A stretch of 64,000 nt of DNA from Escherichia coli (lineage in GTDB: Bacteria > Pseudomonadota > Gammaproteobacteria > Enterobacterales > Enterobacteriaceae). The notes below the pieces were generated by a model, which saw nothing but the letters and a program-made list of their open reading frames with translations, did not search any database and was not told the DNA's origin. Positions 12,824 to 40,713 of the stretch are shown in pieces; position 1 is the stretch's first letter, and the number at the start of each line of letters is the position of its first letter. A program made the translations under genes and the position numbers. The DNA lies in assembly GCF_050320075.1 (NCBI RefSeq), contig NZ_CP190018.1, one strand, 5' to 3'.

Positions 12824-13468
12824 ATGATGCAACCATCAATCAAACCTGCTGACGAGCATTCAGCTGGCGATATCATTGCGCGCATCGGCAGCCTGACGCG
12901 TATGCTGCGCGACAGTTTGCGGGAGCTGGGGCTGGATCAGGCCATTGCCGAAGCGGCGGAAGCCATCCCCGATGCGCGCGATCGTTTGTACTATGTTGTG
13001 CAGATGACCGCCCAGGCTGCGGAGCGGGCGCTGAACAGTGTTGAGGCGTCACAACCGCATCAGGATCAAATGGAGAAATCAGCAAAAGCGTTAACCCAAC
13101 GTTGGGATGACTGGTTTGCCGATCCGATTGACCTTGCCGACGCCCGAGAACTGGTAACAGATACGCGGCAATTTCTGGCAGATGTCCCCGCGCATACCAG
13201 CTTTACTAACGCGCAGCTGCTGGAAATCATGATGGCGCAGGATTTTCAGGATCTCACCGGACAGGTCATTAAGCGGATGATGGATGTCATTCAGGAGATC
13301 GAACGTCAGTTGCTGATGGTGCTGTTGGAAAACATCCCCGAACAGGAGTCGCGTCCAAAACGTGAAAACCAGAGTTTGCTTAATGGACCTCAGGTCGATA
13401 CCAGCAAAGCCGGTGTGGTAGCCAGTCAGGATCAGGTGGACGATTTGTTGGATAGTCTTGGATTTTGA
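12824..13468 (+). CDS. cheZ: CheY-P phosphatase CheZ
   Basis: 214 aa from [32 protein letters not shown]... Start trimmed from 12794. Confidence 0.93.
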
Positions 13469-20994: not shown

Positions 20995-22095
20995 ATGCGA
21001 GGGAAAAAACGCATTGGGTTAATGTTTTTGCTGATAGCGGTTGTGGTTGGTGGCGGCGGGTTATTGCTGGCGCAAAAAGCCTTACATAAAACGTCGGATA
21101 CAGCATTTTGCCTTTCCTGCCACTCGATGAGTAAACCTTTTGAGGAATATCAGGGAACTGTCCACTTTTCGAACCAGAAAGGGATACGTGCGGAATGTGC
21201 CGATTGCCATATTCCAAAGTCAGGGATGGATTATTTATTTGCTAAATTAAAAGCATCTAAAGATATTTATCATGAATTTGTTAGCGGCAAAATAGACAGT
21301 GACGATAAGTTCGAAGCGCATCGTCAGGAAATGGCCGAAACAGTATGGAAAGAATTAAAAGCCACTGACTCTGCAACGTGCCGTAGTTGCCATTCTTTTG
21401 ATGCCATGGATATTGCCTCGCAAAGTGAATCTGCGCAGAAAATGCATAACAAAGCACAAAAGGGCGGCGAAACCTGTATCGATTGTCATAAAGGCATTGC
21501 TCATTTTCCGCCAGAAATAAAAATGGATGACAACGCGGCGCATGAGCTGGAAAGTCAGGCCGCTACTTCAGTGACTAATGGCGTACATATTTATCCTTTC
21601 AAAACTTCTCGCATAGGCGAGCTGGCTACCGTGAATCCTGGTACCGATCTCATCGTCGTTGATGCCAGTGGCAAACAGCCGATCGTTCTGTTGCAGGGTT
21701 ATCAAATGCAGGGCAGTGAAAACACGCTCTACCTGGCGGCAGGTCAACGGCTGGCACTAGCCACATTAAGTGAAGAAGGTATCAAGGCGCTCACGGTAAA
21801 CGGGGAATGGCAGGCTGACGAATACGGCAATCAATGGCGTCAGGCGTCTTTACAGGGTGCGCTTACCGATCCCGCATTAGCGGACCGTAAACCGCTATGG
21901 CAATACGCTGAAAAACTTGACGATACCTATTGCGCTGGTTGCCATGCCCCTATTGCCTCCGACCATTACACCGTCAATGCATGGCCGTCCATTGCCAAAG
22001 GAATGGGGGCGCGAACCAGCATGAGCGAAAACGAACTGGACATTTTGACGCGGTACTTCCAGTACAACGCCAAAGATATTACCGAGAAACAGTGA
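20995..22095 (+). CDS. torY: Pentahaem c-type cytochrome TorY
   Basis: 366 aa with five CxxCH motifs (CLSCH, CADCH, CRSCH, CIDCH, CAGCH). Confidence 0.93.
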
Positions 22096-24583: not shown

Positions 24584-26731
<2,148 letters not shown>

Positions 26732-26783
26732 ACAAACTCCCTTTAAAATGGCCGATGGCACCTGTCTATGATAGGTGGCAAAT

Positions 26784-27140
26784 TCAGAAAAGAGAAGATT
26801 GCTGTGGAATAGCCGGAACTGCTCCGATCTCTGGAAGCGTTTTACGTAAGTCTTCCCACAGGGTATGTACCAGTTCCGGGGCCTGGGCAATATCTGGCGT
26901 ATGTAAAAAAAGATAAGGCGTAGTGGTCTGATGCCACTGCGCTAATTTTTGTAACCAGACCTGAAATAATTCCCGGTTTTGCGTCATATCATCACTACCG
27001 ATAAAACGGATCAGCGGATTTGTCGCCGTCAGTACAGCATGTACCGGAACTTTAGGTTTTTTTCGTTGAGCGTCGCGAATAGCTTCACTGTGTGGACGTG
27101 CTGCATGAACCGGGCGGCTGTCTAAAATCATCAAGGTCTA
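26784..27140 (-). pseudogene. yecE: yecE (DUF72) C-terminal fragment, separated from its N-terminal part by the 12.2-kb insertion
   Basis: ..ILDSRPVHAARPHSEAIRDAQRKKPKVPVHAVL..PQQSSLF continues exactly from the fragment ending ..GVNRVI at 39363-39841. Confidence 0.9.
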
Positions 27141-27157
27141 AATGCACTACATGGGCA
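27125..27157. other. attL (attB left half / AAAATCA core / attP right arm GTCTAAATGCAC)
   Basis: Chromosomal CTGTCT + AAAATCA + element TCAAGGTCTAAATGCAC. See the att reconstruction finding. Confidence 0.75.
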
Positions 27158-27193
27158 CCTAAACATATACATGTGATGTTGAGGTGTTAGAAA

Positions 27194-27209
27194 GGGGGCT
27201 GTTCAGCCC
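27194..27209 (-). terminator. Hairpin downstream of the 306-aa gene
   Basis: GGGGCTG (27194-27200) pairs with CAGCCCC (27203-27209). On the minus strand it is followed by CTTTCT. Confidence 0.5.
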
Positions 27210-27218
27210 CTGATAGAC

Positions 27219-28139
27219 TTAGTAATTATCCCTGACAACTTCATCATATCTTTCAATGAAGGTTAGTTGTTTATTACTTCCATTATAACTATCAACCCAT
27301 TTGTCTACAGCTTCATCGAATAGAAATAAAAAATCCGTATAATTTATATACACTACATTATCATAATATTGGGTTGGGTGACCTCTTTTACATACAGCAA
27401 TACTAAGACGTCTTTCTTTACCCTGAGTAACTTTGTGTGAATTAAGATTAGTCATGTGAAGCAATGAGTTCCTTAATTCATATAATTCGTCGGAAGTTAC
27501 TCCAAGTTTTTGTATATCTGAGTATGTATCTAACCAATTTTGAAAGACTCTTCTTTTGTTTCCAAACTCAATATAAGCTATAGTATCAATAAATGACATT
27601 AATAGCTTGAAGCTTGACAAGTAATGTTTTTTGTTAAACAGAAGCTTTATTGGTTCCATATGGTCATCATTAAGAAGTTCCTTAATGTGAAAACCATCAT
27701 CTTTCATATACTTATCAAGATAGTCTGGCAAGTCTTTTACACCTTCAATGTGATAGTTAGGTGTGTGCTTATTCCTTAATTGCTCTGACATTGATAACTG
27801 AATATCATATTGTAATTTGCCTTTAACAACGGGGGTGACTATAGCTAAAGGGTTTTCAGGTGCATTTTGAGCTTCTAATGCTAATTCAAACGGAGCAAAA
27901 GGATTACCAATCCGCAAATTTGCATTATATCTTTCAAGTGTCAATTTGTCATTTTCTAAAACAGAAGGGTGTATCCCATAAAATAAACGACAAGAAGCTA
28001 AGTCAATCTCCAAATTCCGCTTTAAAAAATCTAATTTTTGCGCATCATCGCCATCATGTTCGTGAGGTACTATTCCGGCATGTGTGATATGAACTCCATC
28101 AGGACTAAAGCAAAATATGTTGTAGATAATCTCTTTCAT
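27219..28139 (-). CDS. Hypothetical accessory protein with a C-terminal HEPN-like RNSLLH (Rx4H) motif; possible Abi-type RNase
   Basis: 306-aa ORF, very AT-rich, at the element edge. R223-N-S-L-L-H228 is encoded at 27456-27473, within a helical C-terminal half. The N-terminus has a His/Asp cluster, HITHAGIVPHEHDGDD. Confidence 0.35.
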   Translation of the reverse strand: MKEIIYNIFCFSPDGVHITHAGIVPHEHDGDDAQKLDFLKRNLEIDLASCRLFYGIHPSVLENDKLTLERYNANLRIGNPFAPFELALEAQNAPENPLAIVTPVVKGKLQYDIQLSMSEQLRNKHTPNYHIEGVKDLPDYLDKYMKDDGFHIKELLNDDHMEPIKLLFNKKHYLSSFKLLMSFIDTIAYIEFGNKRRVFQNWLDTYSDIQKLGVTSDELYELRNSLLHMTNLNSHKVTQGKERRLSIAVCKRGHPTQYYDNVVYINYTDFLFLFDEAVDKWVDSYNGSNKQLTFIERYDEVVRDNY

Positions 28140-28400
28140 ACCATTCTAACCTTCAGTGAAAATAAAGTTTTAACTATCATTAGATTATGAACAATCACAA
28201 TTGGCCTGTAAATAACAGGGCATAAACAGGTTCGTTTAGCTTGATTTTATCACTATAACTGTCTGATTTAACGGTAACTCACCAAGTATACACACAGTAA
28301 TTACACAATCCTGTTATTATGTAACTTATTGAAATATATAAATAATTTTTACATTCTTTGTTTGGGGTAAGCTGTGTAATGTTAGTCGTCCCTCTCCAGA

Positions 28401-28444
28401 CACTATATATAGTGCTATATACAGGACTATATAACGATATATAG
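28401..28444. repeat. CTATATA box array (12-bp period), including the 14-bp palindrome CACTATATATAGTG
   Basis: CTATATA at 28403, 28415 and 28427, plus an inverted copy at 28438-28444. Palindrome at 28401-28414. Confidence 0.7.
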
Positions 28445-28742
28445 ATGTTTGGTCACATGGTATAACTATCAAACCACTTAACGATTTCCTACGTGAAAGT
28501 TAGAAAGTGATAGTTATAGTTACCTTGTCAAATCTTCGTAGTCCCTTCTTAAAAAATCGTGAAAGGTAATCTTGTTATCTATACAGAATCTACGTAGATG
28601 CTTCTTAGTGCGCAAAACAGCTATTATGTTAAAAACGCACTGTATACGTATCAGTACTGATTTATAAGGGTTTTGTGTATTGGCTGATAAGAGGCTATAC
28701 AGCACCTTGAGAGCATGTCTTCTAAGTCATTGACATATAAGG

Positions 28743-28820
28743 TCACAGAAGTTTGTAGCTGTTACAGAGAAAACTGGATAGGACTTCACAGAACTATAAA
28801 ATGTTACAGCTATTGATAGG
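28743..28820 (+). repeat. Two tandem 43-bp units TCACAGAA..GTTACAG..GATAGG
   Basis: TCACAGAA at 28743 and 28786; GTTACAG at 28761 and 28803; GATAGG at 28777 and 28815. Confidence 0.65.
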
Positions 28821-28832
28821 TGAAATCTTCTT

Positions 28833-29050
28833 GATAGATGCTTTGAAGTGTGGTGAAGGCTTTTTGAGGTGGGGCTAAACAGATATCATGAAGAAAGTCA
28901 ATAGTTGATTCGGTTTATCGAATAAACCTCATAGATATTTTAAAATTCTGCAAAGGGGGTCACATAGCTGGTGTGACGGGTACTTAGCAGCTACAGACAT
29001 CTATCAGATATTTTTGAAGATTTTTAGAAGGGGAATTTGAAGAGGGGCTA
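28833..29050 (+). repeat. Two ~45-bp degenerate direct repeats ending in TTTGARGWGGGGCTA, 172 bp apart
   Basis: Copies at 28833-28877 and 29005-29050 align over TTTGAAG..GAAGG..TTTGA(G/A)G(T/A)GGGGCTA. Confidence 0.6.
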
Positions 29051-29249
29051 CTACGATTTTATAAAAATTTTCAGATTCTGAAAAGTTACTGTACAGAATA
29101 TGTACAGATATCTTTAAAGTATCTGTAAAAACTTTTAAGATAAAAGATAGATATCCCAGAAAGGATATCCGTTTAGAAAACCTATTAAGTATCTCTTAAA
29201 AGAGAGTAAACCTTGTCAAGAGTGATTGCAATAAAAATTTTTATTTCTT

Positions 29250-29912
29250 ATGTCAATTGAGTGTATTTTAATCGGGAAACATCATGGGGGTTCTGATTAC
29301 TGGAGAACTCCATTTTTGTTATTTAAGAACTTACACCGTGAATTTATTTTCAGTCTGGATGGTGCTGCAACTAAGCACGATACGTTATTACCCCGCTTTA
29401 CGGATGATATTCACAATCAGTCATGGGATGGTGAACGGGTATTCTGTAACCCACCATACAGCGACACTAAAACATTCCTCGTAAAAGCGTCTGAGGCAGA
29501 TTTATCGGTATTCCTGATACCGTACCGACCCCAAACCATATACTGGCTTAAGCACATCTTCACAAACCCGCTTTGCCATGAAATCCGTATTCTTCATCGT
29601 GCAGTTAAATACCTTCCACCAGCAGGGCATAACAGGCTTACTATTAGGTCGCCGTTTCCAAGTGCAGTCGTTGTTTTTAAAAAAGAACCACGCAGGCATG
29701 AAATTACGCAGATGGTTTGCTGTGCTGATACATTGCTACCGTTAACCATCATTAACAGAGGAGGCTTGAGAGGAAGGCCCACCATTTACCCACCTGAGAC
29801 GCTCGACAGCTTCATAAAACTATACAGGCAAGGCAAACCCATTAAGTGCATTGCAGATGCTCTCAGAATGCCTCTGAGCACGTCATACAGGATTGCTCAA
29901 AGGTTGAGCTAG
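29250..29912 (+). CDS. Phage Dam-family N6-adenine DNA methyltransferase with a C-terminal HTH extension
   Basis: GSDYWRTPFLLF..FSLDGAAT..W.GERVFCNPPYSD matches the phage N6A-MTase family (DxWxTP, LDxAA, NPPY). Residues ~170-220 (GRPTIYPPETLDSFIKLYRQGKPIKCIADALRMPLSTSYRIAQRL) look like a resolvase-type HTH. Confidence 0.75.
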   Translation: MSIECILIGKHHGGSDYWRTPFLLFKNLHREFIFSLDGAATKHDTLLPRFTDDIHNQSWDGERVFCNPPYSDTKTFLVKASEADLSVFLIPYRPQTIYWLKHIFTNPLCHEIRILHRAVKYLPPAGHNRLTIRSPFPSAVVVFKKEPRRHEITQMVCCADTLLPLTIINRGGLRGRPTIYPPETLDSFIKLYRQGKPIKCIADALRMPLSTSYRIAQRLS

Positions 29913-30016
29913 AATTCTCATAAATATGGTCATTTACAAGACAGGTGATTTAGATATTAAGAGGTATCCCTGTGAACAATAAATGACCAATCAGTAATTA
30001 TCCTGTGAAATAATTG

Positions 30017-30045
30017 TTGCAATTTATAATCACACATGGTATAGT
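30017..30045 (+). promoter_or_regulatory. Sigma-70 promoter with extended -10
   Basis: TTGCAA (30017-30022), 17 nt spacer containing TGg, then TATAGT (30040-30045). Confidence 0.6.
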
Positions 30046-30052
30046 TTCATAG

Positions 30053-30255
30053 TGGACTGATAAAAAAGTTCATGTCTTGAAGTGGTAACACTTGGGGAGG
30101 TGTCAGATGATTGACGTATATTAACCTCTCATTCATGGTAATACCTCAGCGTTTTAATCATCGTACTGTTTCAGGCATGGACTTCTTTATCAGTCCATCA
30201 ATCCCCCAGATATTTTAATCACACAGGCTAATCGGTTTTATCCGGTTGGCCTTTT
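30053..30255 (+). ncRNA. Structured ~200-nt leader or small RNA ending in an intrinsic terminator just upstream of rep
   Basis: 22-nt closing helix 30053-30074 / 30176-30197 (20 WC pairs, 1 GU, 1 AC). GNRA hairpin at 30080-30093. Hairpin at 30095-30130. Terminator stem 30226-30235 / 30242-30251 followed by TTTT. Confidence 0.5.
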
Positions 30256-30276
30256 CACGTATGAGGTAATTTATGA

Positions 30277-31245
30277 ATGAAAAAAGAAACTAATGCTTTT
30301 ATTATGGTAGATAAACGAGTTGCACAATTCCCTAAAACATTAAAGCCAATTGACCGCTTGGTATATTTCACTATGCTGGATGGTGCTGATTATTACGAAT
30401 CTAAGTTCGGGAGATACGCACCAAGTATTGACTATTTGATGGTTATGTCTGGTGCTACACGTAATACAGTTATTGATTCACTTAAGAGACTTGAGTCACA
30501 CAGACTTATCGAAAAGACCAATGTAAAGGGTCAGCAAAGTATTTTTAAAGTATTCACGTTGGATGAGCGTCCAGAGGTCTTATCAGAACCTACCCTTGAT
30601 GAGCGTCGTAGAGCTAAATTATCAGGTCAACCAGAATCTGACAGTAACCCAACCAAAAATTGGTTACCTACCCAACCAGAATTTGGTTACCTACCTAACC
30701 AGAATTTGGTTACATGTAATACTGAATATAAAGACAAAAATATAAATACTGAAGAAGAAAGACTAAAAGGGAACTTTGAAGAAGAATCTCTTAAGAAGGG
30801 AGCTTCGCTCTGTGATTCACATGAATGTGATATTAAAGAAGATGACTTTCTTTCTTTGGATGAATTAAATGATTTTCTCTCTATGAATGAATCTGGCCTT
30901 GATAGTGAAGCTACTAAAGAGGCTGTTAAAAAGGAAGATAAAATCTCTGATGTGAATATCGATAGTGACCATAAAAACACACAGTGCCCCGCCACTGATG
31001 ATGAGATGGACCCCTTCGATGATTACCTTGATGAAGAGTCAGAGCGTGAAAAAGCCATTAAGAGGGTAGAGAAGAAAAAGAGATTCGAGCTTGCAAGACA
31101 AAAGAACAAAGTATCGGGTTTAGACCCATTCGATGACAGTGACGATGATGACTTTTCTTTCACACCAAGAAAGAAACAAACTCAGGATGACAAGAAGCAA
31201 AAAATTAAACCGAAGATGTATTTTGCTGGTGGAGGTATGCGCTAA
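30277..31245 (+). CDS. Replication initiator (N-terminal winged-HTH, acidic C-terminal tail)
   Basis: 322 aa. The N-terminus ..IDRLVYFTMLDGADYY..YLMVMSGATRNTVIDSLKRLESHRLIEK.. resembles HTH_36-type Rep or lambda-O-like initiators. Iterons lie inside the ORF. SD GAGGT at 30263-30267. Confidence 0.55.
   Translation: MKKETNAFIMVDKRVAQFPKTLKPIDRLVYFTMLDGADYYESKFGRYAPSIDYLMVMSGATRNTVIDSLKRLESHRLIEKTNVKGQQSIFKVFTLDERPEVLSEPTLDERRRAKLSGQPESDSNPTKNWLPTQPEFGYLPNQNLVTCNTEYKDKNINTEEERLKGNFEEESLKKGASLCDSHECDIKEDDFLSLDELNDFLSMNESGLDSEATKEAVKKEDKISDVNIDSDHKNTQCPATDDEMDPFDDYLDEESEREKAIKRVEKKKRFELARQKNKVSGLDPFDDSDDDDFSFTPRKKQTQDDKKQKIKPKMYFAGGGMR
30629..30719 (+). repeat. Iteron array (candidate ori): three 23-bp units plus one degenerate unit, each with an AACCAnAAnTTGGTT palindrome, followed by an AT-rich tract
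   Basis: Units start at 30651, 30674 and 30697 (AACCA(A/G)AATTTGGTTACCTACC). Degenerate unit at 30629-30650. AT-rich tract at 30715-30760. Confidence 0.65.
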
Positions 31246-31541
31246 TGAAAGAATATCACGGTGAAAAGAGATACAAAGATTACCTGTTAAAGCGTTATAG
31301 CATTTCTCGTGAAGGCCACTTAATGAAGGATACTCACGGGGAAGTTTACCGGATTAGACCGAAGAAAGAAGGGAGGGATTATTTCTTTTACGATGGTGTG
31401 ACAGATTTAAAGATTGATGCTTTGAAGTTTGCGGCGCTGTATCATTATGATATCTGGGACTCAGTCCACCAGCTACGATTAAAAGACGGTGACCCCGGTA
31501 ATCTGAGGGCCACCAATATTATCAAGGGAAAGTGCCGGTAA
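31245..31541 (+). CDS. Hypothetical 98-aa protein, weakly NUMOD4/HNH_3-like (degenerate)
   Basis: ATGA overlap with the rep stop; GGAGG SD. YSISREGHL.. and VHQLRLKDGDPGNLRATNI loosely recall homing-endonuclease-type DNA-binding modules. Confidence 0.3.
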   Translation: MKEYHGEKRYKDYLLKRYSISREGHLMKDTHGEVYRIRPKKEGRDYFFYDGVTDLKIDALKFAALYHYDIWDSVHQLRLKDGDPGNLRATNIIKGKCR

Positions 31542-31550
31542 GTCCACCAG

Positions 31551-31727
31551 CTATTTATTTATTGAAATCTCTATCTCAACACGAAGAAGTTTAAGTCGAA
31601 TTGTAAGCTTTGTCTTTTTTGTAATGACTCGATTCATAACGCAAAACACCAATAGCACAATAAATACCGCAAAGCCCAACGAGCTAAAACGATGAGATTC
31701 AATAATTGCTGTGAAAAAATCATGCAT
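31551..31727 (-). CDS. Small single-pass membrane protein (58 aa)
   Basis: MHDFFTAIIESHRFSSLGFAVFIVLLVFCVMNRVITKKTKLTIRLK... AAGGA SD 6 nt upstream. Own promoter at 31778-31806 on the minus strand. Confidence 0.45.
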   Translation of the reverse strand: MHDFFTAIIESHRFSSLGFAVFIVLLVFCVMNRVITKKTKLTIRLKLLRVEIEISINK

Positions 31728-31777
31728 TAATTTTCCTTTTGCGAAAGGAAACAGCACCTGTATCAGCCCCTATAACC

Positions 31778-31828
31778 ATAATATCATGTAAATGAGATGT
31801 TGACAATATGTTAAATAAATGTTATGAT
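31778..31828. promoter_or_regulatory. Back-to-back divergent sigma-70 promoters with overlapping -35 hexamers
   Basis: Plus strand: TTGACA (31800-31805), 17 nt, TATGAT (31823-31828). Minus strand: TTGTCA (complement of 31801-31806), 17 nt, TATTAT (complement of 31778-31783). Confidence 0.65.
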
Positions 31829-31864
31829 TGTAGTATGAGTAAGAGATTTAAGGAGATTTTTACA

Positions 31865-32155
31865 ATGACTCACACAGTTACGCGCCTTTTGCCAGAGGCA
31901 TTTGAACGACTGGCAGCAATCAAAGCCAAATATCCCGATATGAAGCACACAGCGCTTGTTGGAGAGCTTTTAAAAGAGTCGGTAACCCTGACCCCTTTCG
32001 ATAACGTTAAGGGCGTTGCAGAGGGTTCTAAGGCCATCAGAATCACAACGGACCAACTGGAACTACTCAAAGCACAGTCCGCAGTAGCAGGTTGCTCAAT
32101 GATTCAGGTGTTAAGCGCAAAGGTCCATCAATTAGCGGATAGGCTGGGGGTTTAA
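31865..32155 (+). CDS. Tandem ribbon-helix-helix (RHH) protein, candidate switch repressor
   Basis: 96 aa. Two strand-helix-helix patterns (TVTRLLPEAFERLAAIKAKY..HTALVGELLKES and AIRITTDQLELLKAQSAVAG.SMIQVLSAKVHQLADRL). AAGGAG SD at 31850-31855. Confidence 0.4.
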   Translation: MTHTVTRLLPEAFERLAAIKAKYPDMKHTALVGELLKESVTLTPFDNVKGVAEGSKAIRITTDQLELLKAQSAVAGCSMIQVLSAKVHQLADRLGV

Positions 32156-32580
32156 TGCTATGCACATTTGATTATCATGCGTTTTATCGCCATAGAGGCC
32201 ACCTTGTCCGTGAGAATAGCGGAACATGGAAAGATTTAACTCGTAATGCTGAACCCTTCACACACCAGCAATTAAAATCCCGCTTCTCCAGATGGAAGAA
32301 TGCACCAGCAGATACTGGTGATTTTGAGATTATCCATACCTTCGATTATGCCTCAGAAGATGACCTTCACGATGCAATTAAGCTGATTGAAGACTTCAAT
32401 ACCTCAGAAGATGTGGATGGTGACAAATATAAATCCCGTGGTAACCGCTATAACCGTGATGATATCACTCAGGCCATAAATGCTGGTCAATCTCAGCGAT
32501 ACATTACAGAAAAATATGGTATTTCACGGAGACAGTATTTCTACGTTAAATCATTGATTAATAAAGACAATTCAAAATAA
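32155..32580 (+). CDS. Hypothetical 141-aa protein with C-terminal HTH
   Basis: TAATG overlap with the upstream gene. The C-terminus DDITQAINAGQSQRYITEKYGISRRQYFYVKSL resembles a resolvase/terminase-small-type HTH. Confidence 0.4.
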   Translation: MLCTFDYHAFYRHRGHLVRENSGTWKDLTRNAEPFTHQQLKSRFSRWKNAPADTGDFEIIHTFDYASEDDLHDAIKLIEDFNTSEDVDGDKYKSRGNRYNRDDITQAINAGQSQRYITEKYGISRRQYFYVKSLINKDNSK

Positions 32581-32741
32581 CCATCTCAGTAACGGTAGAA
32601 TGCACTTTACAGGCAGAGTTGCACCTTAATTTGATAAATTACCTTACCAGCCAGTGCAACTCCCTCTGTAACCCGCATGATTACTGGTCTCAGAATGGCT
32701 ATTTTAAGAGGTCTGAGATGTGTTTTGTAGGAGATTTAAAA

Positions 32742-33065
32742 ATGAACAACTTCCCATTACAGATTTTCGTTGATAACGACACCGCTATGATGGTGCAAAG
32801 CTTCAGTGATGCAGGTATTAGCATTGATTTTGACAGGCTGTTAAAGCTAATGGCTGATAATGAAGAAAACGTCTCTGACTTTATTCACTCGGTGGAGTTT
32901 AACGAGCCTCGAATGATGTTACCAATTACAGACAGTAATATGAAAAGATTGGTTATTGAGCAAACGAACAAATACAGTATTTCCCCAGAGCAATTTTTGA
33001 AAGGTGCTGTGACAATCCTGTACAGCGATAATATTTTGGTTACGGATTCCGTGAGGGTTCACTAA
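32742..33065 (+). CDS. Hypothetical 107-aa protein
   Basis: ATG at 32742 preceded by GTAGGAG. The longer ORF-track start (32619) lies in a structured non-coding leader. Confidence 0.45.
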   Translation: MNNFPLQIFVDNDTAMMVQSFSDAGISIDFDRLLKLMADNEENVSDFIHSVEFNEPRMMLPITDSNMKRLVIEQTNKYSISPEQFLKGAVTILYSDNILVTDSVRVH

Positions 33066-33142
33066 TGGGCTTAATAATTGCTTGGACGTTGCTTGGCTTA
33101 TTTGTTGGTTGCTGGGTAGGCAGCACAGTAAATAGAAATTGA
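33065..33142 (+). CDS. Possible 25-aa hydrophobic peptide MGLIIAWTLLGLFVGCWVGSTVNRN
   Basis: TAATG stop-start overlap with the upstream ORF. GAGGG lies 7 nt upstream. One predicted TM helix. Confidence 0.3.
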   Translation: MGLIIAWTLLGLFVGCWVGSTVNRN

Positions 33143-33166
33143 TGTTACCAATCTGTTAAAAAGCTG

Positions 33167-33195
33167 TTGACAAATAACCTTAAGCATGAGATGAT
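33167..33195 (+). promoter_or_regulatory. Candidate promoter, paralogous to the 31800 promoter
   Basis: TGTTGACAA..17 nt..GATGAT, compared with TGTTGACAA..17 nt..TATGAT at 31798-31828. Confidence 0.4.
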
Positions 33196-33636
33196 GGTAA
33201 TAGGGGAGAGCAACTCTCTCTTATTTTTCTTTCAAAATAATCCGATGGATGGATATTCTGAATTGGAAAGGTGCAATGCTTTTCGTCATGGCCTTTCAGT
33301 TTAGTCTGAGAGGCTATCTCAAAAAGTGCTTAATCATTCATTGAACCCTTTACAGCTTTGCCCTAACTCATGATTAGGGCTTTCTTTAAGAGTTTTTAAA
33401 CAGAGCTTTTAAAGAAAGTTTTTCCTGAAACTTCGTTAACGTTAAAGCAAACCTTCAAAGCCCTTCACAGATGAGGATGATTCCATGAATATCCGAATCA
33501 CCTATGTTTAGGGCTTTTTTCAGCTTTTAAAAAGCATACTTGGCAAACGCCTTTTAAGCCTCTTCTAAGTTCGAGGATGTCAGGTGTGCTTTTTAAAAAC
33601 TGAAACATAAATTATCTTAGAAGAGGAAAGGTATTA

Positions 33637-34341
33637 ATGGCTATCCGTGATGAAAATGAAATGATTATTGAAAACAAACCAAGTGCACTTGATATTCACG
33701 AATTAAGTTTGCGTGAATCTTTTGATAGAGCTTGGCGGGAATCACACGAAGTAAATAAAGGTCCATATATTCCACCAGAACCACTCGAGATTCCAAGAGT
33801 TGAAATTGATTTTTCTATGAACGAACGGTGTGAACTTGATTTGAAGTTGAAGCTACAACGCCGATATTTCCAAGCTATTAAAGACTCTCAAGAAGCAATG
33901 AGAAGTGTTTATGAGAAAATTCAGTCCAAGCTTGAAGACGAAATTGACGAAATGGCTATTTTGATGGAGCTTCAAACCAATCCTTATGCTTATTTCTCTC
34001 GACTAGACCGTGACGGTTGGGGGTATGACCCTGTAGAGATTGGTAAAGTGATTGCAGATTTACCAGAAGGTCAAAGGGTTATTCGTACGGAAAGGGCCAT
34101 CAGAGCGCCACATCAACTGTCTCTAATTGTTGCTGATAAATCACAAGCTGAGCTTGAAGAAATTGCCAAAGAGAAACTGATGAAAGCAAGAGAAAATGAG
34201 ATTAATTTGCTGAAATCAAGACTGGCTAAGCTGATTAGTGACCATCAAGCGCTGGCTAAGGAGTACCGTCAAGAGTTGGCACAGATTATCAGCTTCAATG
34301 ATTTTCTGAGTGTTCCACGAGAATTTAGCAAGGCTGTTTGA
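33637..34341 (+). CDS. Hypothetical 234-aa coiled-coil-rich protein
   Basis: Good SD (GAGGAAAGG). Charged heptad-like C-terminal third. No family recognised. Confidence 0.5.
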   Translation: MAIRDENEMIIENKPSALDIHELSLRESFDRAWRESHEVNKGPYIPPEPLEIPRVEIDFSMNERCELDLKLKLQRRYFQAIKDSQEAMRSVYEKIQSKLEDEIDEMAILMELQTNPYAYFSRLDRDGWGYDPVEIGKVIADLPEGQRVIRTERAIRAPHQLSLIVADKSQAELEEIAKEKLMKARENEINLLKSRLAKLISDHQALAKEYRQELAQIISFNDFLSVPREFSKAV

Positions 34342-34364
34342 TTATGAATTAAAAGAGGTGATTA

Positions 34365-34583
34365 ATGTATGAAGACCGTTTGGAAACTATCAAGGCAGTT
34401 TGTGAAAAACTTAAAAACCAACCACGTAAACCAAAAACGGTAAAGAGTAAGCATCAGCCTGTCACCTCAAACAGCAAAATAAAGATTCGCAAAATTCCTT
34501 CGTGGTGCATTGACCGTATTCCGGTTGGTTCAAGAATTATTCGTGAAGATGGTGATTATCATTGGGTATCAGTTGTTGGTTAG
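34365..34583 (+). CDS. Hypothetical 72-aa basic protein
   Basis: AAGAGGTG SD. No family recognised. Confidence 0.45.
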   Translation: MYEDRLETIKAVCEKLKNQPRKPKTVKSKHQPVTSNSKIKIRKIPSWCIDRIPVGSRIIREDGDYHWVSVVG

Positions 34584-34598
34584 TTAGTAAAAATCTAC

Positions 34599-34638
34599 GG
34601 GAGAGATTATCGAGTGATATCGGTAGCTCTCCCTTTTT
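34599..34638 (+). terminator. Intrinsic terminator immediately upstream of the tape-measure gene
   Basis: GGGAGAG (34599-34605) pairs with CTCTCCC (34627-34633), with an inner helix, followed by TTTTT. Confidence 0.7.
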
Positions 34639-34671
34639 CGTATATGAACACTTAAGAGGTGAAAAATATGA

Positions 34672-36804
34672 ATGAGCAAATTCACAGTTGATAGTTTTAT
34701 CGTTGAATTAAGCTTCAATGAAAACATTATTAAGGGCTTGCAAAGAGTTGAAAAGGCAGCTTTGCAGTCAGCACAAAGAATTGAAAAGAACCTAAATAAA
34801 GGTTTCAGGATTAATACAAAGCAGCTTGATAGTAATTTAACGGCTTCTTTAGGGCAGCTTGAAAGGAAGTTTAATAAGGCCTTTGACAAGATTGAACAGA
34901 GAGCAAGAAATACTAAAGCTTTCCAGTTTACCACCAGATTTAATGACACTGTTAATCCTCCAAAACAACCGAGACAGCCACGAATTAGCGGCAACAGAGC
35001 AATCACAGCAGCTTACTCAGCGAATATGAGCAAGCTAAAAGGCTTTGACCCTATTTTGCAGAAATACATCAAATCTCAGTTTTACGGGCTATCTGCTAAA
35101 GCCGGTTCAATGGATTCTTCAAAATTCAATGAGAAGTTAGCTCAGTTAAACGCTTCAGTCAGAGAAGCAATTGCTAAAGCCAGAGGTCATACATCCACCA
35201 GCATTAATGGTGACAGAGCAGCTAATAGTCTTGATAACCTGTCTTCAGCAGCAGTTAAAACAGCAGGTGCATTTATCTCAATGCAGGCTGTATTAGCCAG
35301 TTATCAGAAGATTATGGAAATTGGTTTACAGCGTGCAAGTGCTGAACGTTCAATTGATTTCGTATTTGATAAAGATGCAGGTCAAGTAAAAGAGTTCACA
35401 AAGTCATTAGCTCAAACAACGGGTTTAGATATCGCTGAACTGCAATCACAGTTTGCTGGTTTTGGTGCTTCAGCTAAAGAGTCTATGGGCATTCAAGGTT
35501 CTGAAGAACTTTTTAAAAATATGATTGGCTATGCTCGTCTGATGGGGAGAAGTGAAGAAGAGATTAAGCGAGCACTGACAGCATTATCACAGATGGCTGG
35601 TAAGGGTCAGGTTATGGCTGAAGAGCTTAAGGGGCAATTAGCTGAAGCTGTTCCTGGTATGGTTCAGGTATTCGCTAAAGCAACCGGAAGGAATGAACAA
35701 GAGCTATTTGATGCCATGAAGAAGGGGGCTTTAAAATCTGCCGATACTCTTCAGAAGGTCACTCAGGAACTGAATAAACAAATCACCGCTAAAGGTGGCT
35801 GGAAAGCTATTTCAGAAAGTACACAGGCACAACTAGGGAACCTGAAAAACTCTTGGAATACCACGCTTGATAGTATCTTCAGAGGTTCTGAAGATGGTCT
35901 GCAAGATTTTACAAGAAGCTTAACAACGCTTTTAAACGCTCTTGGTGGAAGTGGTAAAAGTCTTGGTGAATCTCTTGGTAGTCTCATGACTTCTATGTCA
36001 CATGGTGTCGATTCATTGACTGATATCAGCTACAGGGTAAGAGCATTCTTCGATGAGGTGACATTAGCTTACCGTTCACTAAATGACACTCAGAAAAAAA
36101 TTGTTGATGGTTTATCTGATGGGTTAATTGATGGTTTGAAGATGCTTGCCGTAGCTGTTACTGCTCAAAAGGCTGCAAATGTAGCTGGAGGCTTGTTAAA
36201 CCTTGCAAATGCTGTTACTTCATTCGGTGATGCTGTTAATAAAGCTAAAGCTGGCAAGGCTGGTTCTTCAGGTGGTGCGCTAAATAAAGTTGGTAGAGTT
36301 GTTCTTTATGCTGAGTTGGTGAACTTTGCTCTTGATAATTTAAACCCTGAAGCGGCTAAGAATCCGAACTTACACCAATCAGGTATTGGAACAGAGACAA
36401 ACTTCAACCCTGAATACAAAGGCGATTCATCTAAACCAAACCAAATTAATGATGGATGGGCTAAGATTGGTAGTTCTATCGCTGACTGGTTTAATGGTGC
36501 GGCTAATAAAATTGCTAACTTCCAAGACCCGATGAATAACTTTGTTAATAACACACAATCAACTCCACCAGCTATCACAGGTGACATGGTTAATAGCAAT
36601 GCTCAACTTGCTATGGCTGTATCAGAGTTAGGAAGAAAGGTAGACGCTTTAACAGTAGAAGCTAAGAAGCCTTTATCAGTTAATATCAAAGGTGAAGCAA
36701 TTGTTAGACCGGATGAACCAGCTTTCTTTACTTTCAATCAATCAGCTAATGACCAGTTCACGCAGGATATGCTCTTAAGTTCAAGCTATCCAGAGGAAGA
36801 ATGA
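34672..36804 (+). CDS. Phage tail tape measure protein
   Basis: 710 aa. The segment ..RALTALSQMAGKGQVMAEELKGQLAEAVPGMVQVFAKATGRNEQELFDAMKKGALKS.. matches the conserved tape-measure core (lambda-type tape_meas domain). Long helical, Gly/Ala-rich remainder. Confidence 0.8.
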   Translation: MSKFTVDSFIVELSFNENIIKGLQRVEKAALQSAQRIEKNLNKGFRINTKQLDSNLTASLGQLERKFNKAFDKIEQRARNTKAFQFTTRFNDTVNPPKQPRQPRISGNRAITAAYSANMSKLKGFDPILQKYIKSQFYGLSAKAGSMDSSKFNEKLAQLNASVREAIAKARGHTSTSINGDRAANSLDNLSSAAVKTAGAFISMQAVLASYQKIMEIGLQRASAERSIDFVFDKDAGQVKEFTKSLAQTTGLDIAELQSQFAGFGASAKESMGIQGSEELFKNMIGYARLMGRSEEEIKRALTALSQMAGKGQVMAEELKGQLAEAVPGMVQVFAKATGRNEQELFDAMKKGALKSADTLQKVTQELNKQITAKGGWKAISESTQAQLGNLKNSWNTTLDSIFRGSEDGLQDFTRSLTTLLNALGGSGKSLGESLGSLMTSMSHGVDSLTDISYRVRAFFDEVTLAYRSLNDTQKKIVDGLSDGLIDGLKMLAVAVTAQKAANVAGGLLNLANAVTSFGDAVNKAKAGKAGSSGGALNKVGRVVLYAELVNFALDNLNPEAAKNPNLHQSGIGTETNFNPEYKGDSSKPNQINDGWAKIGSSIADWFNGAANKIANFQDPMNNFVNNTQSTPPAITGDMVNSNAQLAMAVSELGRKVDALTVEAKKPLSVNIKGEAIVRPDEPAFFTFNQSANDQFTQDMLLSSSYPEEE

Positions 36805-36967
36805 TTTCTTATATATCCGTGTGCTACGTGATTTCTTCTGAACAGATATACCCACTAAAAATTATTTTTTACGTAGCTCACGCTTAACAGAGAAAATACT
36901 TATATATCAAAGGCTTGGTTAAAAATGATTAAAATACACTAAGCCTTTGAAATCAAAGGAGAATTTA

Positions 36968-37741
36968 ATGATTTACTCTAATCAGATTCGTTACAGTGGT
37001 AAAGATGGCGTTTACTTTCATCTACAAGGCCAGCCAGATAATTTCTTGTCACTATCAGCTACTGAGAACATGGAATTTGACAGCCCTATGATGGTTACCA
37101 CTCAAAATATGCAATCAGGGCAGACTGTCACAGATAATGTAATGCGTTCACCCAGAACTATTTCAATCAGTGGTGTGGTTGTAGTTGGTGAATCCGGTAG
37201 TATCCTTATCTCAAGAGATAATAAGCTGGTGGAAAACTTCATAGACACTCTTGAAAACTGGCGTGACCAGAAGCAAATTATCTCAGTTGTCTGTAAAGAT
37301 GGTATTAAGATTGACGACTCAATTATTACAAACTTTAAAGCCTCTAAAGATGTTGGTATTGCCAATGGTCTTAGAATCCAATTAACTTTTCAGGAAATTA
37401 ACTTTAAAGCTATTGTGGGTCAGACTGATATCTCGGCTGCGACCGGAAGGACTTCTACCACAAGTGATGGTGGTGCTACCAGTAAAAAGAATACAGGGAA
37501 CACTACGACAAGCTTAGGTAACGGTATGTTGATGTGTCAGGAGCTATATAATCGCTCTACGAGTGAACTTACTAATGAGCAACTTCAAGCCCGTATCAAT
37601 TGTGGTAAAAATGTCAGAGTTAAGAACGGAAAAAGCACCTTCTCAGATGCCGCTAATGAGCAAGCTTCAAAGGTGCTTAATAATGCTGGTACAGGTAGTA
37701 CTTTGAAGAAGTATTCTGTTAATCCTAACAAGCGATACTGA
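36968..37741 (+). CDS. Tail-tip or distal-tail-like protein (family usually encoded just after tape-measure genes)
   Basis: 257 aa from [14 protein letters not shown].. (AAGGAG SD at 36956). The pattern [30 protein letters not shown] .. [12 protein letters not shown] resembles Dit-like tail proteins. Confidence 0.4.
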
Positions 37742-37755
37742 CGATAGAATCTCAA

Positions 37756-39279
37756 CTATATGATAACCTCATCAACATCTATTAAACCCCTCTCAGTGAC
37801 TTCAGAAAGCGACTGTATAGCCTCTGTAACGTTGTCTGAGGGGTTTTCTGTTATTGGTAAGGTGATTGCTTTACCGTTGTGAAAAGTTACTTTACAGCGA
37901 CGTTTAGCAGTATTTAAAACGACCTCTTTAACAGCACTTTTGATTATCAGTTGTGCTTCAATCCTTCCCGCCTTTGTAGTCAAGTCACAATCAGACAAAC
38001 AACCCACATCAATAGATTTAAGGCGTTGTGTCTCCTTCTCGATATCCGCATCAACTTGTGATAGCTCATTCTTTAGTTGTCTTAGTTTGCTGGTAATAGC
38101 GGACAAGTCTTCAATTTCAAGTGATAGCTGTACCAGCTTTTCAATATTGCTTGAGATGTGTTCACGGTGTAGCTTCAGTGTGTCTATGGTATTCGTCATA
38201 TCGCTATCAAATCGGTCAAGACGAGATAGCAGGGCAAGCAATGTACCATCGGTTTGCTTACGTGAAAGTCCTTTAGCACTACAACGGTTTTCATTACGAA
38301 GAGGACAACGATAAATCCCGTTTCTTGTATCGCTAAAGCCTGTGATAATCAAAGCATGACCACATTCAGAACAACGGATAACACCTTTGAAAAGATTCAC
38401 AGCCATTGGCTTATCTGAAGCAGGTTTTCTACCGTAACGAGCATATGATAGTTGTTGAACTTTGTAGAATGTTGTTTCATCTATAATTGCAGGATAATAA
38501 CCAGATATCTCCTCACAGCCTTTAGGTGTGAAGTAACCAATTACAGAGCGATTCTTCAAAAGGTCTTGCACTGAGGTTTGACCAAACTTACCTGCTTTGT
38601 ACTGGTTAAGCGTCTGGTGACCTTCAGCATTAAGAGTTCTGACAATCTCCCAGATAGACTTACCCTCTAACCGTAGCTGAAAGCACCTCTTCACAGTCTC
38701 CACTTTCTCAGGTATCACAGAGAAGCTTTTACGGTCATCATTAAGCTTAAGCCATGCAGGACAACGCCTAGAAATCTTGATACCAGCTTTAGCAGCTTCT
38801 TTCTTTGCATCCCATGCAGCTTGTATACGCTCAGCCTTACGTAATGATTCCTCATGCGCCCTTTGCATTATCAAAATGCTTTTAATCAGAGCTAACGGGT
38901 CTTTAAGAGATTCCCTTGTGTAATGTTCACCATCGGACAGGGTGACTACATCTACACCAGAGCGAAGAATGTTTCTGAGTAGCTCACTTGCTTGGTCTAC
39001 GTCCTGACGTGAGAGACGGTCTAAACTCTCGATTAGTAGTGTATCACCAGCTTTAACAAGCCCTTTCTCGATAGCGGTTAAAAAGTCACCTAAGCCACCT
39101 TTCAAGTGCTTACCAGTGAACCCGCTAACGCCTAAATCACGAAAAGTAAGGGATTCATCCAGATAGTACTCAGGATGAGCCTTAAGCCAATCAGTGACCA
39201 TCTTAGCCTGTCGTCTTAATGAGTCGCCTCTGGATTGCTTCTCAGATGAAAACCGGATGTAACTGATTGCACGTTTCAT
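37756..39279 (-). CDS. Large serine recombinase (integrase)
   Basis: 507 aa. N-terminal resolvase catalytic domain (AISYIRFSSEKQSRGDSLRRQ), recombinase domain, Cys-rich zinc ribbon (CSECGH..YRCP..C), and C-terminal coiled coil. Confidence 0.9.
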   Translation of the reverse strand: MKRAISYIRFSSEKQSRGDSLRRQAKMVTDWLKAHPEYYLDESLTFRDLGVSGFTGKHLKGGLGDFLTAIEKGLVKAGDTLLIESLDRLSRQDVDQASELLRNILRSGVDVVTLSDGEHYTRESLKDPLALIKSILIMQRAHEESLRKAERIQAAWDAKKEAAKAGIKISRRCPAWLKLNDDRKSFSVIPEKVETVKRCFQLRLEGKSIWEIVRTLNAEGHQTLNQYKAGKFGQTSVQDLLKNRSVIGYFTPKGCEEISGYYPAIIDETTFYKVQQLSYARYGRKPASDKPMAVNLFKGVIRCSECGHALIITGFSDTRNGIYRCPLRNENRCSAKGLSRKQTDGTLLALLSRLDRFDSDMTNTIDTLKLHREHISSNIEKLVQLSLEIEDLSAITSKLRQLKNELSQVDADIEKETQRLKSIDVGCLSDCDLTTKAGRIEAQLIIKSAVKEVVLNTAKRRCKVTFHNGKAITLPITENPSDNVTEAIQSLSEVTERGLIDVDEVII

Positions 39280-39340
39280 TGTTCACCTCACCAATAGCAG
39301 TTGGGCTTGTACCAACCCCTAGATTGTATCGCTTTAGATG

Positions 39341-39369
39341 GTGTATTTAAACGTGTCTAATAAAAATCA
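39341..39369. other. attR (attP left arm GTGTATTTAAAC / AAAATCA core / attB right half follows)
   Basis: Element GTGTATTTAAACGTGTCTAAT + AAAATCA, then chromosomal CCCGATTAACG. Confidence 0.75.
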
Positions 39370-39841
39370 CCCGATTAACGCCGCGCTGATGTAAACCGCG
39401 ATTAAGCGTTTGTTCCTCTTCCCCTTTGGCGAAAAACTGTGGATGGCGGACTTCCACACCATAATTAAATTCGCCGGGAAGGGAATCGAGAAAATGCCAA
39501 AGCGCAGGCAGATCCCGTGGGCCAAATGTGGCAGGCAGTTGCAGCCAGTATTGCCCAATGCGCGGCGCTAACGGTGACATGCGGGTCAAAAATTCAGTCA
39601 CTAAATCATCGCAATGCCGTAATGCTGCCTGATGCGAAATGGTCGCCGGAAACTTAAAACAGAAGCGAAAATTATCTGTGGTCTGCTCACGCCAGCGCAG
39701 GACAACCTCGGATTTCGGCAGGGCGTAAAGCGTGGTGTTGCCCTCCACACAGTTAAAGTGGCGGGCATACTCTTCAAGGCTGGTGATCCCCAACCGCACC
39801 CATTTAGGATGCGACCATTGCGGCAGACCGATGTAAATCAT
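39363..39841 (-). pseudogene. yecE: yecE N-terminal fragment (159 native codons, then 5 element-encoded codons and a stop)
   Basis: [48 protein letters not shown] followed by FIRHV-stop read from element DNA. Confidence 0.9.
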
Positions 39842-40404
39842 AATGCGTTGAGGATCTCTTCCACACTGCGCACACGGGCGATGCGTGGGTAGATATGGTT
39901 GATGCTGTTATTGTGCTGCTCGGCGCTGGCGGCGCTGCAGGCGTCTTCGGCAATCACCAGATTAAAACCGAGTTCCCAGGCATTGCGGGCGGTGGATTCA
40001 ACACCGATATTGGTCGAGATCCCACATAATACTATTGTATCGATACCCCGGCGGCGTAATTGCAACTCCAGATCTGTACCGTAAAACGCCCCCCACTGAC
40101 GTTTGATGATTTCGATATCACTGTCAGTTGCACCTAATGCAGCAGGATGTTGCCACCAGTTTTCGGGCAACACTTTAGCGGGGGAAGGGGCATCAACCGG
40201 CTGTTTTAATGCTTCGGCGTAATCGGCAGACCAGCCAACGCGCACCAGAAACACGGGCTGACCGCTGGCGCGAAATTTCACCGCCAGCTTCCCGGCGCGA
40301 TTAACCACCTCATCGGCAGTATGTGGACCTCCGGCAAAAGGTAAGATGCCTTCTTGTAAATCAATCACCACCAGCGCGGTGGTTTTAGCATTAAGTTCAA
40401 GCAT
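39838..40404 (-). CDS. yecD: Isochorismatase-family hydrolase YecD
   Basis: 188 aa from [34 protein letters not shown]... Start trimmed from 40419. Confidence 0.9.
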
Positions 40405-40713
40405 GATGACTCCTGACAAAACAAAATCGTGCCTCTCACCTTAATGCGATTAGCCGATGGCGGAACGACAAATTTTGTTAATTTTTATGAGTTCGGGCAA
40501 CACCTTTATAGCAAACTGGCGTAGAGTCTGATTTCAGGCCCGATATAAAGTGGTAACGAGGCGTTCCAGCGCGGGCCAGACTCTTACGGTGCGGCAGAAT
40601 TTCCAGTATAATAGCCGCCTTTTTTCATTCAGTTGTGACATACAGCTAACGCTGCGACTTGGTCACCTGCGCAGCAGGGGGCATCCGCCGGCAGCTAAGT
40701 TAAGGGATATCTC

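Follow-up and report, generated by a model that had tools for sequence, protein, structure and literature searches.

The stretch described here, positions 33,066 to 33,636 of a 64,000-nucleotide (nt) window of the Escherichia coli chromosome (contig NZ_CP190018.1, assembly GCF_050320075.1), is the leader of a tail-gene operon and forms a real, conserved and highly folded non-coding RNA region of a new RNA family without a match in Rfam. The genomic island around it has the appearance of a satellite or defence element linked to virulent FelixO1-like (Ounavirinae) phages. Our preferred reading, which we judge to be about evenly balanced between right and wrong, is that the leader acts as a multilayer off-switch of the tail-gene operon. 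The switch would combine an operator, transcription termination and occlusion of the Shine-Dalgarno (SD) sequence, and would also yield a non-coding RNA of 190-320 nt. The elements of the leader are listed below, with coordinates given throughout as positions in the window.

33143-33169, + strand: three direct repeats resembling an operator, TGTTA-N6-TGTTA-N6-TGTTG, phased at 11 nt, of which the last overlaps the -35 element.
33167-33195, + strand: sigma70-type promoter, with TTGACA at 33167-33172, a 17-nt spacer, TG at 33187-33188 and GATGAT at 33190-33195.
33199-33225, + strand: 5'-terminal stem-loop (core 33204-33220) of 12 bp, -13.2 kcal/mol, z -5.0, followed by UUUUUCUUUC.
Directly after the 5' stem-loop: variable spacer with (GATG)n repeats, which in some variants carries hairpin insertions of 26-30 nt.
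33265-33285, + strand: invariant 21-nt block GGAAAGGTGCAATGCTTTTCG, similar to an SD sequence with AUG, folding on itself (GAAAGGU/GCUUUUC) or into the lower tiers of stem P2.
33270-33347, + strand: three-tier stem P2, consisting of P2a (33270-33278/33339-33347), P2b (33279-33285/33320-33326) and the apical P2c (33288-33299/33306-33317).
33360-33387, + strand: T2, a weaker terminator-like hairpin, GCCCUAA/UUAGGGC followed by UUUCUUU, -10.4 kcal/mol, z -3.0.
33389-33436, + strand: two small, conserved hairpins that separate T2 from T3 and include the tandem AGAGTTTTTAAAC/AGAGCTTTTAAAG.
33457-33520, + strand: T3, a terminator-like hairpin, AAAGCCCU/AGGGCUUU followed by U6, whose loop carries here a 30-nt hairpin insertion at 33473-33502.
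33518-33605, + strand: 27-bp hairpin in the 5' untranslated region (UTR) of a gene for a 234-amino-acid (aa) protein, built by a 28-nt inverted repeat (33518-33545/33578-33605) around an apical loop at 33546-33577.
33559-33569, + strand: anti-SD sequence CCUCUUCUAAG in the loop of the long hairpin, a perfect 11-nt complement of 33616-33626.
33616-33639, + strand: SD region CUUAGAAGAGGAAAGG and ATG (33637) of the 234-aa gene, the first of the operon orf234-orf72-TMP-Dit, where TMP stands for tape measure protein.

The leader matches 477 of 5426 complete E. coli genomes (~9%), mostly at 80-90% identity, and is never annotated. Using an exact promoter 19-mer as probe, 109 homologous loci were collected from metagenomes, IMG/VR and Escherichia genomes, and 93 distinct variants were aligned. 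All of them are close relatives, and the structure tested was taken from the window sequence, itself one of the 93. A genome-wide scan with the exact pattern found the promoter only in Escherichia (E. albertii, Escherichia sp.), the other matches being chance 19-mers. The 450-nt RNA from 33201 to 33650 folds with a minimum free energy (MFE) of -142.7 kcal/mol, compared with -104.2 +/- 6.4 for shuffled sequences (z -6.06; 0 of 100 shuffles). Across the variants, 85.7% of the alignment cells were paired, against 36-56% when the pairing partners were slid. The covariation score was 0.119 versus 0.03-0.05 for slid partners, a value reached by 0 of 500 shuffles, and 31 pairs showed changes on both sides, far more than in the slid-partner controls. 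G-U pairs outnumbered A-C mismatches by 1106 to 289 (3.8 to 1), an excess that points to + strand RNA as the structured molecule. Furthermore, RNAalifold, applied independently of the window fold, recovered the 5' hairpin, T3 and the long hairpin. An earlier note on this DNA, made from the letters alone, had proposed covariation analysis in homologs as a check on its hairpins, and they proved both conserved and covarying in the 93 variants. A cmscan of 26000-40500 against Rfam at E<=1 returned only two chance eukaryotic matches outside the region. Comparison of the leader with phage sequences gave nothing at E<=1e-5 and chance matches only at E<=10, and word-7 blastn against FelixO1 gave only chance-level matches.

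The candidate promoter pointed out in the earlier note is a near-consensus sigma70 promoter with an extended -10 element. It scores 10/12 plus TG in the window, while most relatives carry the -10 CATAAT (11/12 plus TG), and the transcription start is predicted at ~33202. Positions 33140-33195 are conserved at 93-100%. Searching with a second probe, the invariant block, retrieved four loci whose promoter is the same but for a single mismatch per locus in the 19-mer. Inspection by eye shows TGTATATAT behind the -10 of relatives, a sequence in which a -10-like repeat could be present; the window sequence does not have it. The operator-like repeat over the promoter is non-random and sits on two promoters: the TGTTR x3 pattern occurs exactly twice in the 64 kb, with 0.00 occurrences expected, each time on a strong promoter. 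The second copy (31798-31824) lies on a TTGACA-17-TATGAT promoter (11/12 plus TG) and has a fourth unit at 31787; the region 31787-31828 thus represents a second strong sigma70 promoter covered by four phased TGTWR repeats. In related loci, the pattern was found at the leader promoter in 91 of 112 and at about -1.3 to -1.45 kb in 26 of 74, and no copy was present on the minus strand.

The first gene behind the second TGTTR promoter (31865-32155) encodes a 96-aa protein that keeps 37% identity in a divergent relative and weakly matches the Omega repressor (E 0.18). Its structural model contains a beta-alpha-alpha unit twice (pLDDT 65). The best Foldseek matches, all with non-significant E-values (0.06-2.5), were chains of the F-plasmid relaxosome, DndE and single-chain Arc; we take the relaxosome chains to be TraY, a tandem ribbon-helix-helix (RHH) protein. 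With moderate confidence, and going by the model, the 96-aa protein would be a tandem RHH repressor acting on both promoters. Because the same repeat sits on the promoter of that gene, initiation at the leader is probably repressed or tuned by this tandem-RHH-like protein.

At the 5' end of the predicted transcript, the 7-bp hairpin that the earlier note had described at 33204-33220 was confirmed and is in fact 12 bp long. In this stem-loop 96.5% of the cells are paired, 4 of 9 pairs show compensatory changes (GC/GU/AU), and the loop is flipped in some variants. Together with its U-run, the stem-loop was scored as terminator-like in 50 of the 93 variants, the window included, and could therefore also stop read-in from the upstream operon. 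The hairpin at 33226-33269, the second in the MFE structure of the window, was discarded as not conserved (32-56% of cells paired). Further downstream, the 9-bp hairpin noted before at 33291-33299/33306-33314 was likewise found, here as the 12-bp stem P2c. This stem folds in 71 of 71 unique sequences with 30 different stem sequences, and its 81% of paired cells is a value limited by the alignment. P2a and P2b are 94-100% paired but almost invariant. The invariant block is 91-100% conserved and is not the start of a conserved open reading frame (ORF); RNAalifold places it in the local hairpin GAAAGGU/GCUUUUC, and the single-sequence MFE structure places it in P2b in 68 of 71 cases. A 9-nt complementarity that links one arm of P2c to the long hairpin's end was treated as chance, because the P2c types and the leader types assort independently (judged by eye in few alignment rows). 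Tandem repeats within this part of the leader vary in copy number, with ~2-6 copies of (GATG)n at 33243-33254 and a (TCAT)n repeat in the internal loop of P2 (33331-33341), as read by eye from the alignment rows. Judging from these rows, the variation is of the slippage type and changes length within the transcribed RNA.

The two terminator-like hairpins follow P2. T2, which the earlier note had read as GCCCTAA/TTAGGGC (33360-33380) followed by TTTCTTT, was flagged as terminator-like by the scan. It is present in 64 of the 93 variants and 99.8% paired where present, with a loop-closing pair that is UA in 52 and CG in 11. The small hairpins after it are 97-99% paired but nearly invariant, which makes their counts uninformative, and the short form of the leader has neither. 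A T3-like hairpin occurs in 92 of 93 variants and has 97% of its cells paired and a single pair with compensatory change (CG 64, UA 28). The majority form has -14 kcal/mol (z -5.6) and the short form -15 kcal/mol, each followed by U5-6. The pairing of AAGCCCT (33458-33464) with a downstream AGGGCTT and T6, as described before, is real, but the 3' arm lies at 33510-33516 and the T6 at 33515-33520, a shift of one base. The two terminator modules reported as direct repeats correspond to 33370-33386 and 33504-33520 and are 88% identical. On the minus strand the same hairpins have no U-tract, whereas the + strand presents the G+C-rich stem and U-tract of an intrinsic terminator.

The stacking of terminators that the earlier note had emphasised holds for the window, where both T2 and T3 are present, but it is not conserved. 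Two leader architectures were observed: a long form with T2, spacer and T3 (63 of 93) and a short form with a single T3-like terminator (29 of 93). The conserved property is therefore one good terminator and not stacking. No sigma70-like promoter was detected between T3 and the start codon at 33637, and the operon thus seems to depend on transcripts that pass the terminators. The general arrangement claimed earlier, a strong promoter and then intrinsic-terminator-like hairpins ahead of late-like genes, agrees with the downstream genes, which match TMP_3 and Dit_like.

The 28-nt inverted repeat behind T3 and the pairing of its loop with the SD sequence had escaped the earlier note. The segment 33510-33650 (141 nt), which holds the long hairpin, has an MFE of -38.8 kcal/mol (z -2.9). 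The hairpin exists in three sequence versions, with 88% of cells paired and compensatory changes in 11 of 27 pairs. Complementarity of 6-12 nt between the loop and the SD was found in 69 of 79 variants and across all three leader versions, as CUUCUAA/UUAGAGG, CCUCUUCUAAG/CUUAGAAGAGG and UUCACCUCU/AGAGGUGAA. In 49 of the 79 variants, no more than 5 of 200 loop shuffles reached the observed length. Such an anti-SD loop may mask the ribosome site. Hairpins in the 5' UTR that occlude the SD and are processed by RNase III are known from phage mRNAs, such as the lambda N leader and the T7 R sites. The leader resembles them in having a long (27-bp), near-perfect duplex adjoining the ribosome-binding site, and differs from them in that its SD-masking element is located in the apical loop and not in the stem. 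With its 27 bp the stem has the near-perfect duplex of ~20 bp or more expected of an RNase III substrate, and cleavage here is a potential one, predicted from this length.

Combining these elements, the off-switch would work as follows. Initiation at the promoter would be repressed or tuned by the tandem-RHH-like protein via the TGTTR x3 repeat. Transcripts would open with a protective 5' stem-loop, followed by the three-tier stem with the invariant block. Most of them would stop at T3, preceded in two thirds of the variants by the weaker T2, and the products would be a non-coding RNA of ~190 nt (short form or stop at T2) to 320 nt (stop at T3, as in the window). In transcripts that read through, the loop of the 27-bp hairpin would pair with the SD of the first gene and hold translation down. 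Acting jointly, operator, termination and SD occlusion would silence the phage-derived tail genes as long as the cell is uninfected, and relief would be expected when a FelixO1-like phage infects it: by derepression, by read-through and/or by cleavage of the long hairpin. If true, the leader would guard tail genes of phage origin with a compact genetic off-switch of three layers. Both the RNA family and the element that hosts it are new and common, and their function is one that we infer.

Several points weigh against this reading. The promoter, the start site and termination are predictions, and the promoter 19-mer served as exact probe, which makes the conservation of those 19 nt a matter of construction, though the second probe bears it out. 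The RHH assignment relies on a medium-confidence model and on non-significant Foldseek E-values. The T2 stem is weak, and 13 of 92 T3 variants have a poor U-tract (TATTCAG or CATTCAG tails). Versions a and b of the anti-SD have common sequence and thus count as one, leaving two independent versions only. The 10-nt linker seems, by a geometric estimate, too short for a pseudoknot between loop and SD when the full 27-bp stem is formed; masking may therefore need partial opening of the A-U-rich lower stem. Moreover, the invariant block and its invariant partners are unexplained by a pure terminator and occlusion model, which suggests an additional, sequence-specific partner. The efficiency of termination, the masking of the SD, the identity of the repressor and the trigger are likewise steps that we infer. 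A more far-reaching version of the proposal places the RNA switch in an undescribed E. coli satellite family parasitising virulent FelixO1-like (Ounavirinae) phages. In it, the new RNA would be an abundant regulator as well as the gate to stolen tail genes, and a factor of the helper or the satellite would read the invariant block and turn termination into read-through on infection. We regard this version as doubtful.

Functionally, the leader resembles three known systems, lambda PR'-6S RNA-tR', the P4 CI leader and SviR, and it falls outside the Q, N and C4 families by their defining tests. Like lambda PR'-6S RNA-tR', it has a strong sigma70 promoter and a ~200-nt terminated RNA upstream of virion-structure genes, with a terminator that must be passed. 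The lambda Q layout of a constitutive promoter, a terminator within ~200 nt and late genes is recognisable here, with T2 ending at 33387, T3 at 33520 and the genes starting from 33637. In contrast to lambda, the island has no Q-family gene upstream, its leader carries an operator-like repeat over the -35 and an anti-SD hairpin after the terminator, and its likely helper is virulent and FelixO1-like rather than lambdoid. The P4 CI RNA (in the PLE leader of P4; C4 antisense RNA, RF01695) is also found in a satellite, where a constitutive leader RNA and termination hold an operon off. However, the island leader has no Rfam C4 match, no seqA/seqB/seqC-type complementarity was recognised in it apart from the two terminator stems, and it precedes tail-gene homologues, whereas P4 controls replication genes. 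SviR, from a PLE satellite of Vibrio cholerae, is intergenic, with a single promoter and ~210 nt to an intrinsic terminator, and its promoter, seeds and terminator are its most conserved parts (bioRxiv 10.1101/2022.04.08.487710). By architecture, the island RNA can be likened to it as an intergenic non-coding RNA of ~200 nt with similar conserved parts, belonging to a serine-recombinase satellite of a virulent myophage. The SviR promoter is phage-induced, while that of the island is host-type, strong and provided with an operator; seeds and targets have been demonstrated for SviR and none were found for the island RNA, whose flanking inverted repeat is not conserved.

Among the alternatives to an off-switch, the unit from promoter to terminator may be a stand-alone gene for a trans-acting RNA with targets in the helper, the island or the host, for which the place before the tail genes is secondary and the terminators would be no more than the 3' end. 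A trans function is plausible because the core from the promoter to P2 (33142-33480) behaves as an autonomous module and is the best conserved part of the locus, combined with three downstream leader types and two upstream peptide types. The near-consensus promoter, the 5' stem-loop, the intrinsic terminator and an invariant block that could serve as seed or protein site would suit such a gene, as would the parallel with the SviR architecture and the 14-nt inverted repeat that flanks the unit here (33153-33166/33521-33534). On the other hand, this SviR-like repeat is absent from leader type b and was rejected as a feature of the family. The block is predicted to be base-paired and not exposed, no complementarity of at least 11 nt to other parts of the island recurs (in 9 of 110 loci at best), and matches in FelixO1 are not above chance. 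In addition, no other promoter for the tail operon was found downstream, and the RNA and the operon are therefore physically one transcription unit. A type I toxin-antitoxin pair finds no better fit, the RNA being on the same strand as the peptide gene and downstream of it, with no recurrent complementarity of at least 11 nt to the upstream region. We consider a trans-acting RNA unlikely, though a serious contender, and it is compatible with the off-switch. A processive antiterminator supplied by the helper (Q-, N- or put-like) could also read through the terminators from a constitutive promoter, as at lambda PR'-6S RNA-tR'. The layout is that of PR'/tR', with a strong sigma70 promoter, a short terminated RNA and structural genes. 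The island has no recognisable antiterminator of its own, as the earlier note had supposed: its proteins gave no match to Q, N or other antiterminators in Pfam, PHROG or NCBIfam. FelixO1 also has a leader of its own before ORF51/terminase, at the head of the packaging and structural operon (NC_005282, 30185-30410), and 256 Felixounavirus genomes keep this leader at 85% conservation or more. Within it are a promoter-like TAGACA-17-TATACT and two terminator-like hairpins, at 30218-30270 and 30343-30360, each followed by U6. These hints in the FelixO1 sequence indicate that its late genes may themselves depend on read-through, and this terminator-bearing leader makes helper-driven read-through of the island leader conceivable. 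Yet the annotation of FelixO1 lists no Q- or N-like protein, the two leaders have no common sequence, the stacked terminators are not conserved, and the operator repeat points to control of initiation by an island protein. Sites similar to boxA (YGCTCTTTAAC-like, + strand, at most one mismatch) were not found in 33066-33636, with 35 in the whole window against 31.6 expected. We hold antitermination by the helper to be improbable.

The remaining two alternatives concern the nature of the conserved molecule. The region might act as DNA, in the form of a pac or cos site, a replication origin or a recombination site, with the hairpins as cruciforms or protein-binding palindromes. In HK97-like phages a gene for an HNH endonuclease stands beside the cos site, and many relatives carry an HNH endonuclease gene two genes upstream of the leader; the region is also A+T-rich and has several palindromes of the TTTTAAAA type. 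This motif is weakly enriched, with 7 occurrences in the window against 2.2 expected, and was not retained as a repeated protein site. Compensatory changes that keep the stems, together with the excess of G-U over A-C, are expected for + strand RNA and not for duplex DNA, and the non-coding DNA similar to FelixO1 lies elsewhere, at 28934-29189. Both observations disfavour a pac, cos or origin role, which we consider very improbable. The last alternative is that the region encodes small proteins, such as the 22-aa ORF (33276-33344) that the earlier note had suggested, and is conserved at the protein level. An invariant SD-like GGAAAGG precedes ATG 33276 by 4 nt, and the ORF for 25 aa at the 5' edge, described below, is a real gene. 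The 22-aa ORF exists in the window, but the frame that opens at ATG 33276 ranges from 5 to 58 aa and shifts among the 93 variants, which rules it out as a conserved gene. This ATG is also base-paired in both predicted conformations, and no other ORF of at least 18 aa, on either strand, is common to more than 30 of the 93 variants. Coding as the reason for the conservation is scarcely credible.

The island that carries the off-switch candidate comprises the following parts.

~27150-39340 (~12.2 kb): island inside yecE (DUF72) of the E. coli chromosome, with a low G+C content of 35-42%.
+ strand island genes: a Dam-like methyltransferase gene, a gene with weak replication-initiator matches and several unknown small genes.
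+ strand, downstream of the leader: the 234-aa gene, a 72-aa gene, the tape-measure gene (TMP_3, PHROG 4036) and the Dit-like gene.
Minus strand: a 507-aa recombinase gene with the RefSeq label 'recombinase family protein'.

The Dit-like protein is 70% identical to its counterparts in FelixO1 and ~300 other Ounavirinae, and the DNA of its gene (36992-37540) is 80% identical to FelixO1. In the TMP gene, the DNA of the two ends (34661-34754 and 36776-36805) is 81% and 97% identical to FelixO1, while the middle shows ~34% protein identity and the lengths are 710 aa in the island and 742 aa in FelixO1. This pattern suggests recombination arms, or conserved interaction ends, flanking a changed length ruler. 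Two non-coding segments, 28934-29096 and 29132-29189, are 70-86% identical to two non-coding places in NC_005282, at 13289-13452 (a 1.6-kb gene-free gap) and 21578-21633 (a divergent intergenic region). Matches to the 28934-29189 stretch were found in 254 Felixounavirus records, at 334 places in total and mostly two per record, and the segments are candidate sites mimicking an origin, a pac site or promoters of the helper. Judging by 70% identity in the Dit-like protein, a homologous TMP and two non-coding segments in common, the helper is probably a FelixO1-like virulent myophage and not a lambdoid phage. The earlier note had proposed lambdoid Q and N proteins as partners of the leader; given the likeness of Dit, TMP and non-coding DNA to FelixO1, tests with those proteins would be aimed at the wrong partner.

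Like PLE-type satellites, the island is a small integrated element with a candidate large serine recombinase and with genes and sites derived from a specific virulent phage. The matches of the 507-aa recombinase to the large serine recombinases XisF and CcrA in NCBIfam are below threshold. The element seems to be for E. coli what the PLE satellites are for Vibrio, with FelixO1-type phages as its target. These phages are widely proposed for biocontrol and therapy, and carriage of the element in ~9% of complete E. coli genomes could affect phage efficacy. The island itself is apparently undescribed, and our literature search found no description of a FelixO1/Ounavirinae satellite or of a yecE island of such kind. 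PADLOC and NCBIfam scans of the island proteins returned nothing relevant, and the predicted structure of the 234-aa protein was all-helical, of low confidence and uninformative. A genome can match the leader at up to three places, and at least one further site of integration was identified, which lies between yciI and a recombinase gene in one relative (L003). Positions 32729-33629 form a conserved backbone block, while its neighbours, the replication genes and the 234-aa gene, are exchanged from relative to relative. The protein encoded directly upstream of the leader, of 107 aa (32742-33065), is co-inherited with it. It falls into 3399 distinct clusters at 90% identity in the protein database, all of them unnamed, and a Pfam search gave nothing above noise. 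This very diversified family is a candidate partner of the leader.

Hairpin insertions of 26-30 nt, of the form GAGG(A)TA...TA(T)CCGAA, are present or absent among the variants at three positions of the leader: one directly behind the -10, one immediately ahead of the invariant block and one within the T3 loop (33473-33502). Examples were observed in two relatives, at ~8124-8150 in L004 and ~8190-8217 in L003. FelixO1 has no copy, and besides the copy in the T3 loop the window has only two fits to a loose pattern, one per strand. These insertions may represent a miniature mobile hairpin.

At its 5' edge, the leader overlaps a short gene that is unannotated in RefSeq.

33065-33142, + strand: ORF for a hydrophobic, single-helix peptide of 25 aa, MGLIIAWTLLGLFVGCWVGSTVNRN.

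The earlier note had regarded the whole stretch as a non-coding leader of 570 bp; this ORF removes the first 78 nt from it, and the remainder is without a conserved ORF. The ORF is intact in 90 of 94 unique variants and occurs in two amino-acid types. The ORF encodes a membrane peptide, and its ATG is read in a TAATG that also holds the stop codon of the 107-aa gene before it; this overlap is always kept and suggests translational coupling of the two genes. In 90 variants, its stop codon is located 16-18 nt ahead of the promoter 19-mer.

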